Shown: positions 27,246 to 31,441, counted from the stretch's first letter. The stretch: 64,000 nt of DNA from Candidatus Micrarchaeota archaeon (GCA_021851065.1 JAJZJQ010000001.1:9640-73639), one strand, 5' to 3'. The notes: a model not told the origin generated them from the sequence alone. Translations and numbers: made by a program.

Positions 27246-28652
27246 CTATAGCGAAAGGACAAGAAATGGAAGCAGTCCCAGTGCTATGGATGAGCATAGT
27301 AGCAGCATTCCGGAAACCATGACGTCAGTCGAGAGCGTACGGTACGGCTCAGTGGCTTCCGACGAGTTTATGAACATCCTCTCTATTACCCAGAAAAGCG
27401 CCGCGCCCATGAGGAATATTCCTGCAAGAGGCACTATGCCAGTCACTCCGAATGCAATTGCTGCGCCTATGAATACGAGTATGTCTGCTATGAATGCTGC
27501 AGTTAGAGGCAGGCCTATGGCCCCGAACACGCCTATTATGAACAGATAAGAGAGCCCGGCGAAGTTCTTGATCACGCCTTTTATCTTGCTGATCTCCAGG
27601 GTGCCGTATAACTCGTCAAGGGTACCTGCAACGAGAAAGAGCAGTGATATCGCAAGGCCATGGCTGAGCATGAAATATACGGCGCCTGTTGTGCCAACTG
27701 AATTTAGCGCGCTAAGGCCGACGCCTACGATGCCCATGTCAACTATGCTGGTGTATGCTATAAGCCTCTTGACATTTGATTGCACAAGGCACACTATACC
27801 AGAATATATTGCAGAGAACAGGAAAATGAGAAGCAGGTATGGTGCATAATGCGAGGCTATTGGCAGCATCAGATAGGTGAGCAGCAGCAGGTAGCCTCCG
27901 AACTTTAGCAGAACTCCTGCAAGTATCATGCTTCCTGTAGTTGGCGCCTCAGTATGAGCGTCAGGCAGCCAGGTATGCAGGGGGAAGACTGGCATCTTTA
28001 TCATGAAAGACACGATGAATAGCAGCATAACAAGCAGCTGGGTACGGGCGCTTATGCTGGCAGATGAAGCTATTATTGCGCTTATGCTAAAGGTATGGGG
28101 AACGGTGGAGCTATACAGCAGCATTATCCCTATGAGCAGCAGCAGACTTGATATTGCCGAGTATATTATGAACTTTATGCCGGCATACCTCCGGTTATAT
28201 CCGCCGTACATGAATATTATGAAGAACATCACTACTTCAGCAAGCTCCCAGAATATGTACAGTATGAAGAGGTTTGATGCGGCAAACACGCCAAGAGATG
28301 ACGCCTCTGCTATGAGGAATATGAAATTGTATATCCTCTGCCTCTCACCCATGAAGTATTTGCCGACAATAGAAGCGGCAAGGAATACAATAGAAGCCAT
28401 CAGCATCAGTACGAGCGTTGGGGCAGTCGCGTAGAGGCTGAAATCCAGGTTTAGCTGCGGAATGTAGCCAAAGCTCAGCGACAGAGAGCCGATGCCGTAT
28501 TCGTACGAAGCCGCAATCGATATCAGCGTGAGTGCAAATGTTATCGCAGAAGCCGCAAGGGCTATGGAGTGGGCGTGCTTGCTATCGATTACCAGCACCG
28601 CGGCTGCTGCTGCGAAAGGGACCAGTATGAGTGCGAGAAGTACCAGCATCAT
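27246..28652 (-). CDS. NuoM/ND4/MrpD-type antiporter-like (proton-conducting) membrane subunit, orphan
   Basis: 468 aa; FWELAEV (TM5 Glu), IKMPVFPLHTWLPDAHTEAPTTGSMILAGVLLKFGGY (TM7/TM8 Lys); ATGA overlap with the upstream AAA gene. Confidence 0.85.
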   Translation of the reverse strand: MMLVLLALILVPFAAAAAVLVIDSKHAHSIALAASAITFALTLISIAASYEYGIGSLSLSFGYIPQLNLDFSLYATAPTLVLMLMASIVFLAASIVGKYFMGERQRIYNFIFLIAEASSLGVFAASNLFILYIFWELAEVVMFFIIFMYGGYNRRYAGIKFIIYSAISSLLLLIGIMLLYSSTVPHTFSISAIIASSASISARTQLLVMLLFIVSFMIKMPVFPLHTWLPDAHTEAPTTGSMILAGVLLKFGGYLLLLTYLMLPIASHYAPYLLLIFLFSAIYSGIVCLVQSNVKRLIAYTSIVDMGIVGVGLSALNSVGTTGAVYFMLSHGLAISLLFLVAGTLDELYGTLEISKIKGVIKNFAGLSYLFIIGVFGAIGLPLTAAFIADILVFIGAAIAFGVTGIVPLAGIFLMGAALFWVIERMFINSSEATEPYRTLSTDVMVSGMLLLCSSIALGLLPFLVLSL

Positions 28653-31441
28653 CTACCACCATATAGAGAGATGAAGCTCATATAGCTTCCCATAGTATTG
28701 GATGGCGCTGAAGGCTTTATCGCATGTATTATCTCAAGCATGTCGTCCATCGTTATCCTCTTCTCCTTCGATGAGGAAAGGTCGGCCTCAAGCGCCCCCA
28801 TCTTCGCTTCCCTGCAAATGTTGGCGATATCGGCACCAGTGTACCCTTCTGTCTGTGAGGCGAGCCTCTCGAAGTCCATGTCGCCGTCAAGAGGCACCTT
28901 CTTGAGGTTCTCGCGGAATATGCTGGCCCTGTCCTGGCTTCCTGGAGGAGGCACGAATATGAATTTGTCTACCCTTCCTGGCCTTATTATCGCCGTATCA
29001 AGCATGTCTGGCCTGTTGGTTGCGCCCACCATGACTATGCCGCTTGCATCCTTCATGCCATCCAGCTCCTGCAGGAACTCGCTTGTTATCTGGATGTAGA
29101 GCTGGCCGGAGTCGCTCCTGCTGGGCAGCAGCGCATCTATCTCGTCTATGAATATTATGCATGGCGCATTCTCCCTGGCCCTGTTGAACGCCTCGCGTAT
29201 AGTCGCTAGCGCATTCTCGAACCCATTCTTGGATATCTCGGCCCCAGAGAGCGTTATGAGTTTTACGCCGTCAAGCTCGTTTGCCACTGCCCTTATTAGC
29301 ATGGTCTTTCCTGTTCCTGGAGGACCGAACAGGAGTATGCCGCGTATATCCTTTACGTCATATTTCTTCATGAGATTTGGGTGCAATATTGGTATTTCTA
29401 TGGCTTCGTAGAGTGCTTTCTTGGCCTTCTCCAGACCGACCACGTCCGATACGCGCACCGTATCCTCGTTCTCAGCGAACCTCTCAGGGTGGGCGCGGCG
29501 CTCGTAGTCCGTCTTGAACTGGTTGTACTTGTCTATGGAAGCCAGCGACGTGGATGGTTTCGTGACATTTATGACATCCAGCATGTCCTGCAGCGTTATC
29601 TTGAGAACCTTGTGCTGCCGTATCGCCTCCTCAGCAACCTGCCTTGCAGCCTCATCGCATACATTCTTTATATCTGCGCCGCTGTACCGGCTGGTGACGC
29701 CTGCCAGCTTCTGGTAATCCAGGCTGTCGTCCGCAGGGAAGCGGCCCATATGGTGCTCGAATATTTTTGCCCTTCCGGACCTGTCCGGCAGCTGCATGTA
29801 CATTATTTTATCGAATCTTCCTGGCCTCATTATGCTTTCGTCGAGAAGCTGTGGAGAGTTGGTCGAACCGACGATGACCACCCCGTCTACCCTCTGGAAC
29901 CCGTCCATCTCACTTAGCAGCGTAGTCAATACCTGCCGGCTTATGTCGCTTTCCTGTGCTTCCCGCTTGGAAGCTATGCCATCGATCTCGTCGAAGAATA
30001 GCACGGCAGGAGTGTGCTTGCGTGCTGTCTCAAAGACCTTTGATAGCGCCTGCGCACTCTCCCCCTGAAAAGGGGATATTAGCGATGATGTCTTTACGTA
30101 AAAAAATCTGGCGCGTATCTCGTTTGCTATGGCACGCATCATCAGGGTCTTTCCTGTCCCTGGAGGACCGAACATGAGTATGCCCTTGGCTGGCTTGACG
30201 TTGTAAGCTCCAGCTATCTCCCTGTGCTCTATAGGGGCAAGTATGGCCTCACGCAGCTCCTTTTTGGTCTGGTCGTAATTTGCCACATCGTCGAGGGTCT
30301 CCCTACTGCCACTTGTGATGTCCTCGAATGCCTCGCCGAACTTTCCCAGAAAGTCGCGCTTCATCACGTCAAGCGCCCTGGCTACTTCGATGTTGGAGCT
30401 TTCGAGCGCGAACACCACAATGGTTGCTAGCGGGAAACTTATCATCGACAGCAGATTTGGCTGGTAGCCGCTGAACAGGGCCATGCCGGCATACGCTGCA
30501 AGTATTACGAATCCGTATAGACTGGCCTCTGCGCCCTTGAACGCCGATCTGCTCTTTATCACGTAATTTACCATTGCAAACACGGTTATGAGCCATACGA
30601 AGAGTTGTATCAGGGTAAGCTCTAGGCTGTAGGCAACAGATGCGATAGCCATCCCAAAAGCAGCGAAGATCTGATCGGCTACATTGAAGCTGAACATCCT
30701 GCCCATAGCAGCGCCAATGCCAGGAGGAAACTGCAATGCTGTTGGAGCAGGCATGGATGGAGAGAGGTACTGAAGCGCTAAACCGGATGGGAAAGAGCTG
30801 TGGGCAATTGTTGCGTTGTATACGATTGGGGCGCTGATGCTGATTCCGGTGAGCCCTGCCAGCATTGGCACCATCAGCAGTATCACTGCGGTAGACACTA
30901 TGGATCTGCGGTAGCCTATGAAAAGCACGCCTATTATGAAGACAGGTATCTCTAGCAGAGAGCCCAGATACGACAATGGCAGCATTATCATTACATATAT
31001 GAATGTTATTGTACGGTAGTGCCTGTATCCAAGTATCAGGGATATGCTGATGAACAGCGTGAAGATCCAGGCGAACAGGGGAGCCTGGTAGATGAACATT
31101 AGCAGGGTCTCAAACAGCATTGCCATTAGCCCGCCTAGTGGCAGCACAAGCGTTATTACGAATGTCACTATTACAAGGGGTATGAGTACTATTGGAGGGA
31201 AGAGGGGGAATGCTATGGCCACGCTTATGATGGCAAAGGCTATTGCAAGAGCGTCGGGGAAGTTCTTGCGGCTGGAGAAATCCTTCAGCAGGTCTTTTGC
31301 TATGAAGTAGAACATGGGCAGGTATGACGCACGGCTGTGCACAGGCTGGCTGCCACCCACAGGCCTCTTGAATGAAACTTCAGATTTGCCATCCACAACT
31401 TGTTTCTTCTGGGTGTGCTTGTAGGCCATAGGCAGTATCAC
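28649..31441 (-). CDS. polytopic-membrane tandem AAA+ ATPase (CDC48/VAT-like D1-D2 with the N domain replaced by a ~370-aa multi-TM domain)
   Basis: Two Walker A GPPGTGKT; Walker B LFFDEID and IIFIDEID; SRH GSTNSPQLLDESIMRPGRFD and GATNRPDMLDTAIIRPGRVD; N-terminal third almost entirely hydrophobic; start is GTG 31441 or ATG 31429. Confidence 0.85.
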   Translation of the reverse strand: MILPMAYKHTQKKQVVDGKSEVSFKRPVGGSQPVHSRASYLPMFYFIAKDLLKDFSSRKNFPDALAIAFAIISVAIAFPLFPPIVLIPLVIVTFVITLVLPLGGLMAMLFETLLMFIYQAPLFAWIFTLFISISLILGYRHYRTITFIYVMIMLPLSYLGSLLEIPVFIIGVLFIGYRRSIVSTAVILLMVPMLAGLTGISISAPIVYNATIAHSSFPSGLALQYLSPSMPAPTALQFPPGIGAAMGRMFSFNVADQIFAAFGMAIASVAYSLELTLIQLFVWLITVFAMVNYVIKSRSAFKGAEASLYGFVILAAYAGMALFSGYQPNLLSMISFPLATIVVFALESSNIEVARALDVMKRDFLGKFGEAFEDITSGSRETLDDVANYDQTKKELREAILAPIEHREIAGAYNVKPAKGILMFGPPGTGKTLMMRAIANEIRARFFYVKTSSLISPFQGESAQALSKVFETARKHTPAVLFFDEIDGIASKREAQESDISRQVLTTLLSEMDGFQRVDGVVIVGSTNSPQLLDESIMRPGRFDKIMYMQLPDRSGRAKIFEHHMGRFPADDSLDYQKLAGVTSRYSGADIKNVCDEAARQVAEEAIRQHKVLKITLQDMLDVINVTKPSTSLASIDKYNQFKTDYERRAHPERFAENEDTVRVSDVVGLEKAKKALYEAIEIPILHPNLMKKYDVKDIRGILLFGPPGTGKTMLIRAVANELDGVKLITLSGAEISKNGFENALATIREAFNRARENAPCIIFIDEIDALLPSRSDSGQLYIQITSEFLQELDGMKDASGIVMVGATNRPDMLDTAIIRPGRVDKFIFVPPPGSQDRASIFRENLKKVPLDGDMDFERLASQTEGYTGADIANICREAKMGALEADLSSSKEKRITMDDMLEIIHAIKPSAPSNTMGSYMSFISLYGGR

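Follow-up and report, generated by a model that had tools for sequence, protein, structure and literature searches.

What would a tandem AAA ATPase do if it were built directly onto a large membrane domain? The question is raised by an open reading frame (ORF) in a 64,000-nucleotide stretch of DNA from Candidatus Micrarchaeota archaeon (GCA_021851065.1 JAJZJQ010000001.1:9640-73639), the whole of which we call the window. Micrarchaeota are tiny, symbiotic, host-dependent DPANN archaea. An earlier note, made from this DNA alone, had described the product of positions 28649-31441 as a CDC48/VAT-like ATPase whose N domain is replaced by a polytopic membrane domain, and had proposed that it acts as a membrane-protein extractase, a translocon-associated motor or an ATP-driven gating device. 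We find that the gene encodes a Micrarchaeota-specific, single-copy type-II AAA ATPase, consisting of a domain of ten predicted transmembrane (TM) helices, a linker and two complete classic-clade AAA modules (D1 and D2). We tentatively propose that it is a hexamer that threads membrane or envelope polypeptides and draws them from the bilayer, acting as a protease-less dislocase or remodeller. The features of the sequence would favour the extractase among the three proposed roles and exclude none of them.

The membrane domain and the AAA cassette

The bounds given for the gene proved to be exactly those of one uninterrupted ORF on the minus strand; the plus strand over the same interval is closed by many stops. 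The features of the gene are listed here from its 5' to its 3' end, with residues counted from the GTG at 31441.

28649..31441, minus strand: whole ORF, 930 amino acids (aa); GTG at 31441, stop TGA at 28649-28651
31455..31464, minus strand: TATA-like A/T-rich box ATATTTATAG (TTTATAG), about 30 nt upstream of the ATG, read from the sequence
31427..31429, minus strand: in-frame ATG at codon 5, the probable true start, where the database copy begins
31316..31441, minus strand: predicted disordered, K/R-rich cytoplasmic tail, aa 1-42 (pLDDT <60; family mean of 8.5 K+R)
31274..31315, minus strand: predicted amphipathic helix before TM1, aa 43-56 (P42, Y46, K49 and D50 kept in at least 90%)
30398..31261, minus strand: predicted 10-TM domain of a previously unannotated family, aa 61-348 (AlphaFold2 and positive-inside pattern)
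30626..30847, minus strand: predicted outside loop of 74 residues with short helices, between TM7 and TM8, aa 199-272 (AlphaFold2 and charges)
30287..30397, minus strand: acidic cytoplasmic linker of 37 residues from TM10 to D1, aa 349-385, with a conserved helix (K361, D363, F368)
29492..30286, minus strand: AAA module D1 with lid and Vps4_C-like KPS..Y..F helix, aa 386-650 (Pfam)
30146..30169, minus strand: D1 Walker A, GPPGTGKT, aa 425-432
30056..30076, minus strand: D1 pore loop 1, S-P-F-Q-G-E-S, aa 456-462 (80-member alignment)
29981..30001, minus strand: D1 Walker B, LFFDEID, aa 481-487 (D484 and E485 invariant)
28652..29491, minus strand: AAA module D2 with lid and C-terminal helix, aa 651-930 (Pfam)
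29303..29326, minus strand: D2 Walker A, GPPGTGKT, aa 706-713
29213..29242, minus strand: D2 pore loop 1 region, AEISKNGFEN, aa 734-743 (80-member alignment)
29135..29158, minus strand: D2 Walker B, IIFIDEID, aa 762-769 (D766 and E767 invariant)
28652..28684, minus strand: C-terminal tail Y-x-x-F-x-S-x-[YH]-G-x-R, with an aromatic residue at position -4, not HbYX

The hydrophobic character reported for the N-terminal part of the protein was borne out. Kyte-Doolittle analysis gave a continuous run of TM-length segments between residues 60 and 350, and AlphaFold2 (AF2) modelled the N domain, from a 65-sequence alignment, as an all-helical membrane bundle (pLDDT 89.6, pTM 0.84; full-length model, pLDDT 88.3, pTM 0.67). 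Helix limits were taken from the AF2 model and place the TM helices at residues 61-77, 83-99, 101-119, 121-137, 145-158, 160-175, 181-198, 273-296, 302-323 and 330-348. When the lysine and arginine (K+R) charges were averaged over the 65 family members, they clustered in the N-terminal tail and in the loops at 57-60, 138-144, 176-180 and 297-301, the alternate loops having none at all. Because this charge pattern follows the positive-inside rule on the model helices, it fits a topology of ten TM helices with both ends in the cytoplasm (N-in/C-in), and both AAA modules would therefore follow TM10 on the cytoplasmic side. Ten helices lies within the eight to ten that had been counted by eye, a count that is thus borne out.

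The conserved residues of the membrane domain lie mainly in three places: its cytoplasmic loops (R143, G176/R179 and R298/K302), two tight outer turns (Y118-Q119-x-P121 and S157...G160...P166) and the linker, with the residues listed above.

No known family could be assigned to the membrane domain. Pfam gave no match at all within residues 1-385, and a Pfam scan of all 65 N domains at E-values up to 1 returned scattered chance matches only. A profile of the N domain found no match among the PDB sequences at E-values up to 10, neither NCBIfam nor PADLOC held an entry matching the membrane domain, a Foldseek search of its model against the PDB gave nothing (best E-value 0.6), and a look-alike search of the ESM Atlas with residues 1-375 gave no usable match. 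In an exhaustive VIA-align search the 14 best structures were all S components of energy-coupling factor (ECF) transporters, with chains of 155-214 residues, which superposed on model residues ~136-362 (138-160 residues aligned, root-mean-square deviation 3.6-5.1 Å, 8-14% identity) with Z values of 8.0-10.3; these are below the Z of ~13 that helical bundles reach in VIA-align through arrangement alone. On the model, this likeness appears to be a weak resemblance of fold and not membership. We conclude from the sequence searches that the membrane domain, of ~290 residues, is a new family without a Pfam entry that is restricted to Micrarchaeota, and one for which there is a confident predicted structure.

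The remainder of the protein is a complete tandem AAA cassette. Every motif quoted for it in the earlier note was present, including both second-region-of-homology strings (aa 525-544 and 806-825), and the Pfam scan identified two PF00004 AAA modules (261.5 bits in total) and two AAA_lid_3 domains. Each module is followed by a KPS..Y..F helix, with a Pfam Vps4_C match after D1. Likewise, as had been stated, Pfam and NCBIfam scans of the whole protein gave no protease, KH or CDC48_N domain. In an alignment of 80 members the Walker A lysine is (near-)invariant in both D1 and D2, and the Walker B D-E, the sensor-1 asparagine and both arginine fingers are invariant or deviate in a single member in each module. 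D1 additionally carries the EMDGF motif, an inter-subunit motif of FtsH/PAN type, in 73-79 of the 80 members.

The two pore loops differ. In D1 the consensus is S-P-[YFW]-x-G-E-S, with an aromatic residue at position 458 in 68 of the 80 members and an invariant G460. The D2 pore loop has no conserved aromatic residue, position 739 being Y in 18 members, N in 16, E in 14 and A in 10. The family's C-terminus, [YH]-G-x-R, lacks an HbYX motif: the residue before the last is E, R, K, G or Q in no fewer than 76 of the 80 members, with F and Y both missing from the five commonest residues there. The HbYX pattern, which marks proteasome-activating AAA proteins (PAN, archaeal CDC48 and AMA), is [hydrophobic][FY]x at the very end of the chain (PMC3493965).

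Regarding the start of the protein, an identical protein in the public collection (P0002) has 926 aa and begins at an ATG. We consider the ATG at 31429, which would give 926 aa, likelier to be the start than the GTG, because the database copy begins there and because the TATA-like box lies about 30 nt upstream of it. The box at 31455-31464 is a putative promoter element, and from its spacing to the ATG the mRNA is likely to be leaderless or to have a short leader.

Distribution of the family and other machines of the host

A word-indexed search with residues 1-375 recovered 83 clusters, and all but a few truncated ones were proteins of 890-970 aa with two AAA modules. The membrane domains of these relatives share 33-62% identity with that of the query, and the named ones are from Micrarchaeota metagenome-assembled genomes (MAGs). 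When the N-domain profile was run against 1.84 billion representative proteins, with no length filter, 73 proteins only were found and none of them was a relative from outside the Micrarchaeota family; the full-length matches all carry the AAA cassette, and the named ones are from Micrarchaeota or Anstonellales. Two proteins with the NCBI label 'Candidatus Marsarchaeota' (P0025 and P0039) are 43-48% identical to the query membrane domain and fall among Micrarchaeota sequences; the taxonomy of these MAGs is probably mislabelled. Two distant relatives of 1300-1309 aa (P0156/P0159) begin with an extension of ~428 aa, after which come a region that matches part of the membrane domain weakly and two AAA modules.

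The longer profile matches, of 1080-1912 aa, are the same protein with inteins in the P-loop region of D1, in some cases with LAGLIDADG endonucleases. P0115, P0136 and P0134 are such intein-bearing members. The canonical CDC48 of one further genome (G039, loci L056/L057) seems to be interrupted as well, at residues 372/373.

Whether the N domain is ever found without AAA modules had been posed in the earlier note. Full-length matches never lacked them, and of the short ones P0103, which was checked, is a fragment at a contig end. On a 4.6 kb metagenomic contig (L066:3359-4598) the membrane domain (332 aa) and the start of D1 lie in separate ORFs 80 nt apart, which is either a genuine split gene or a frameshift error. 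A stand-alone N domain was therefore rejected, the short matches being contig-end fragments or this one case.

The distribution within the phylum was surveyed by six-frame searches of 201 species-representative genomes. The domain was found in 161 of them (125 of the 152 of high quality), in open frames of ~900-960 aa, and families f9, f10 and f14 had none in the genomes searched. There is nearly always one copy per genome; a second match occurred in five of the 161, and at least two of these are fragments.

The host genome (1.13 Mb, 36 contigs, 87.5% complete) also encodes a canonical CDC48 of 722 aa, with CDC48_N and CDC48_2 domains and the C-terminal HbYX sequence ...SMYR, as well as a protein with tetratricopeptide repeats and an AAA domain (TPR-AAA), LonB (807 bits), and the alpha and beta subunits of the 20S proteasome. 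A canonical CDC48, 60-74% identical to that of the host, also coexists with the membrane AAA protein in all five of the other genomes that we checked, which represent five families. Because CDC48, LonB and the proteasome are all present, we conclude from these sequences that the membrane AAA protein is an addition to the usual archaeal set and not a substitute for a missing part; the proposals that it replaces a missing LonB or a missing CDC48 were both rejected on these grounds.

Candidate functions and the gene neighbourhoods

The function that we tentatively prefer is that of a motor threading polypeptides out of the membrane. Since arginine fingers act in trans, six subunits would form a stacked D1/D2 ring, which would hang beneath a platform of ~60 membrane helices with the entry face of D1 against the membrane on its cytoplasmic side, in the manner of the AAA ring of FtsH. 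In FtsH, Msp1 and Cdc48, substrate enters at the ring face on the N-terminal side. The membrane domain would recognise or admit membrane-embedded or membrane-associated polypeptides, the D1 pore loop would grip their exposed segments, and the chain would be threaded from the bilayer toward D2 and the cytosol. Because its ATPase motifs are intact but its pore loop is degenerate, D2 probably contributes to assembly or stability or provides auxiliary power. Since the protein has neither a protease domain nor an HbYX tail, it would work on its own as a dislocase or remodeller, and its products could be refolded, or degraded by LonB or by CDC48 with the 20S proteasome.

Several points weigh against this proposal. 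Ten TM helices are far beyond what an anchor needs (FtsH has two TM helices and Msp1 one), and the membrane part probably does something in its own right, for example as a channel or in binding a ligand or substrate. LonB is already present for the turnover of membrane proteins, and chains extracted by a protein with neither an HbYX tail nor a protease would have no obvious destination. The gene neighbourhoods point, if to anything, to envelope or respiratory-complex proteins and differ between lineages. Finally, the hexamer and its orientation are drawn from homology.

The neighbourhoods suggest a narrower role, specific to the S-layer protein or to its membrane-bound partner, a ~700 aa glycoprotein with two TM helices: the motor might, for instance, clear precursors that have stalled, or remodel anchors. 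In 13 of 40 loci, belonging to seven families (f3, f4, f6, f7, f13, f15 and f18), an S-layer-type gene lies one to three ORFs downstream of the AAA gene on the same strand; it is directly downstream in 11 of the 13 and is separated by one or two small ORFs in L041 and L048 (the others are L022-L024, L027-L029, L039, L040, L042, L043 and L047). The gene encodes ~820-1020 aa with an S-layer-type signal peptide and an S_layer_C match, and agrees with what has been described for the S-layer protein of Ca. Micrarchaeum harzensis (bioRxiv 10.1101/2021.04.28.441871). After it, in nine of the 13 loci, comes a ~700 aa protein with a signal peptide, a sequon-rich ectodomain, two TM helices and a Cys-bearing C-terminal domain, which in eight of those nine is followed by a small paralogue. 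Upstream neighbours in these loci vary, and a GT4 glycosyltransferase and a GH57 gene are often found further upstream. Against a role at the S-layer, the adjacency is absent from the window's genome and from families f1, f2, f8, f11 and f12; the gaps between the AAA and S-layer genes, 220-530 bp in the eight loci measured, permit separate promoters; the seven families may be one clade with an inherited gene order; and the Cys-bearing domain of the partner is predicted to lie outside the cell, beyond the reach of a cytoplasmic ring. We regard this explanation as unlikely.

In the host genome the S-layer cluster is not beside the AAA gene and is broken across contig ends, at C1:1-1611 (minus strand) and C8:3-1472 (plus strand). 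Downstream of the host S-layer gene are a 698-aa ORF resembling a glycoprotein, with a signal peptide and two TM helices (L063:1699-3795), and a 204-aa relative of it (L063:3800-4414). The trio formed with the S-layer gene is conserved across Micrarchaeota and has no match in Pfam or NCBIfam.

A larger role is conceivable for the membrane domain itself. The 60 helices of a hexamer could form a gated conduit with D1, placed beneath it, pulling polypeptides across the membrane or out of it, making the protein a self-contained protein-conducting machine for the uptake or turnover of envelope or host-derived proteins and an archaeal counterpart, in one polypeptide, of Hrd1 with Cdc48, or of the TIC-associated motor Ycf2/FtsHi; we hold this to be decidedly unlikely.

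Alternatively, the membrane domain might bind or conduct a small molecule or lipid, with the AAA rings driving or gating it. The ECF likeness described above would be in keeping with such a transporter, as would the large size and high conservation of the membrane domain and the reliance of Micrarchaeota on imported metabolites known from the literature. However, that likeness is within helical-bundle noise, at 8-14% identity and with nothing from Foldseek, none of the 65 members has an ECF Pfam match, and classic-clade AAA proteins with an aromatic pore loop are generally known as threaders of polypeptides or nucleic acids. An ATP-driven transporter or gate is therefore improbable.

A translocon with its own pulling motor seems to us improbable too. 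Here the ring of membrane domains would be the channel, and polypeptides, either host-derived or periplasmic, would be drawn into the cytoplasm, or else the protein would work with Sec. The predicted facing of D1 toward the membrane and the 60 helices per hexamer, which could enclose a pore, agree with this, as does the confinement of the family to an obligately host-dependent phylum. It is, however, a purely architectural reading, and none of the 40 or more loci inspected showed linkage to Sec or host-contact genes.

The gene directly downstream in the window suggests a further role, in the assembly or quality control of NuoM for complex I. The neighbouring genes are as follows.

27246..28652, minus strand: nuoM, complex I subunit M, 468 aa (TIGR01972, 319.7 bits, above the cut-off)
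31513-31622, plus strand: intron-bearing tRNA gene (Rfam RF00005, 55.9 bits), divergent from the AAA gene and 72-84 bp away

The nuoM ATG overlaps the stop codon of the AAA gene by 4 nt (ATGA). In addition, a Proton_antipo_M (PF00361) gene lies within one to four genes of the AAA gene, on either side and in either orientation, in all ten of the f1 or near-f1 loci (six assigned by genome and four contig loci placed provisionally), and these nuoM neighbours are often at the end of a nuo operon. On the other hand, there was none within ~7 kb in eight f2 loci or in 27 loci of other families. Family f2 has PF00361 genes in 50 of 56 genomes with no adjacency to the AAA gene, and most other families keep the AAA gene with no PF00361 gene at all: these are scarce in f3 (1 of 14) and f8 (6 of 37), and absent from f4, f7, f13 and f15. 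This distribution led us to reject a complex I factor as the general role, and we hold a dedicated assembly factor for NuoM to be very improbable; the linkage to nuoM is specific to the window's lineage, f1. A complex prediction for the membrane domain with the adjacent NuoM scored 0.00, which weighs neither way. Neither the nuoM nor the S-layer linkage is found throughout, and gene order passed on by descent may account for both; together they hint at membrane or envelope clients without naming one.

The nuoM of the window is apart from the remaining nuo operon, which is on contig C35, and a third Proton_antipo_M gene is on contig C12. Beside nuoM, at 23758-27244, are genes for a cis-prenyltransferase (UppS-like), a DUF2070 membrane protein (607 aa) and an unannotated 313-aa ORF, a block that also accompanies the AAA-nuoM pair in the related loci L001 and L009. 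The tRNA gene, which ARAGORN missed, has an intron of ~40 nt just after the anticodon loop, and its anticodon was read by eye as GUA (Tyr).

That the ORF is an artefact, in which assembly or gene calling joined a membrane-protein gene to a CDC48-like gene, has next to no probability and is refuted for the window: apart from the separate ORFs of L066, one uninterrupted frame was seen in 160 other genomes, 80 full-length members could be aligned, and contigs from four mine-drainage runs of one study, which may include the source sample and are thus not independent support, tile the gene, those of three runs bridging the junction between N domain and D1 (~30300) with no indels. Contig depth in these runs spikes at 29093-29253 (D2 Walker B) and at 31508-31668 (tRNA), where contigs of other organisms also match.

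Comparison with known AAA systems

To our knowledge, all characterised type-II AAA proteins (CDC48/VAT, NSF, Pex1/6 and AFG2) have soluble N domains, and the known membrane-bound AAA machines (FtsH, Msp1 and Bcs1) have a single module and are anchored by no more than two helices. A polytopic membrane domain followed by D1 and D2, with no protease or soluble N domain, is by contrast a real and conserved arrangement according to Pfam, AF2 and the genome survey. It belongs to no characterised membrane-AAA family in Pfam, NCBIfam, PADLOC or the PDB and is undescribed in the literature that we searched, so that the earlier statement that no characterised equivalent is known still holds for these sources. 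AAA unfoldases draw their specificity from their N domains, and a two-ring motor on a ten-helix membrane domain would be a new coupling of ATP-driven threading to the bilayer. The gene is near-universal and single-copy in the phylum Micrarchaeota, and its role in these host-dependent DPANN archaea is therefore probably a core one at the membrane or envelope. Archaea, as far as we know, have neither FtsH nor SecA, and for this reason a membrane dislocase or translocation motor, if the proposal is true, would fill a recognised gap.

The protein resembles CDC48, p97 and VAT in its tandem D1-D2 cassette, in the complete ATPase motifs of both rings and, presumably, in being a hexameric threading motor. 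The cassette is collinear with that of p97/VAT in a single stretch (query 8-548 against p97 202-737, E 2.8e-110), and to this extent the description of it as CDC48/VAT-like stands. That an N domain has been replaced is less well borne out. The protein scored 465.6 bits against the CDC48 family model TIGR01243, below the cut-off of 802.65, and for each of its AAA modules the best match within the CDC48 model is to the D2 half. Its D1 and D2 are 38% identical to each other and 36-42% identical to the modules of the host genome's CDC48, the D1 and D2 of which are themselves 50% identical. In a maximum-likelihood tree of 39 modules, with small sampling and long-branched outgroups, the four module types each grouped alone, CDC48 D1 and D2 came together (90/97) next to the family's D2 (80/91), and no D1-D1 or D2-D2 pairing with CDC48 was seen. 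Given the score below the cut-off, the matches to the D2 half, the tree and the coexistence of a canonical CDC48, the protein looks like a separate type-II AAA lineage rather than a CDC48 with a swapped N domain. It also differs from CDC48/p97/VAT in having no CDC48_N, CDC48_2 or HbYX tail, and its pore-loop pattern, aromatic in D1 and degenerate in D2, is the reverse of that of p97.

The Lon_C protease domain of LonB-type proteins had no match in the membrane AAA protein. Among anti-phage AAA proteins (IetA/IteA), the IteA model gave 231.8 bits, below its cut-off of 510, and PADLOC matches were confined to the generic AAA core, with none in the N domain; the gene is almost always single-copy and is near-universal in the phylum. 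ECF S components (ThiT, RibU, FolT, BioY and CbiM) can be superposed on the last six helices of the membrane domain, but the domain has four extra N-terminal helices, the 74-residue loop, no EcfT/EcfA partners and no sequence signal of such a relationship.

Nearer comparisons are with other membrane-bound AAA proteins. In the membrane-bound AAA (MBA) proteins of Sulfolobus a single AAA module is combined with an N domain that has a TM helix on either side. Our protein is similarly archaeal, membrane-bound and of the classic clade, and it is set apart from MBA, by description only, through its two modules and ten TM helices. MBA proteins are named in PMC3493965.

Bcs1 is a heptamer that carries a folded substrate, and in both Bcs1 and Msp1/ATAD1 one TM helix goes with one AAA module; compared by description only, they have no homology to our protein in the membrane part. 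The likeness lies in their being stand-alone, protease-less AAA machines of the membrane, by which proteins are taken out of the bilayer or across it, as is generally known (PMC10567702).

FtsH and Yme1 likewise hold an AAA ring against the cytoplasmic face of the membrane by means of N-terminal TM helices, and they share with D1 the EMDGF motif and the aromatic pore loop. In FtsH a single AAA module is combined with two TM helices and an M41 protease; the membrane AAA protein, with its two modules and ten TM helices, lacks a protease, had no Peptidase_M41 match and scored 393.3 bits against the FtsH family model, below the cut-off of 600. By analogy, we conclude that FtsH/Yme1 is the likely mechanistic counterpart of this protein for the extraction of membrane proteins.

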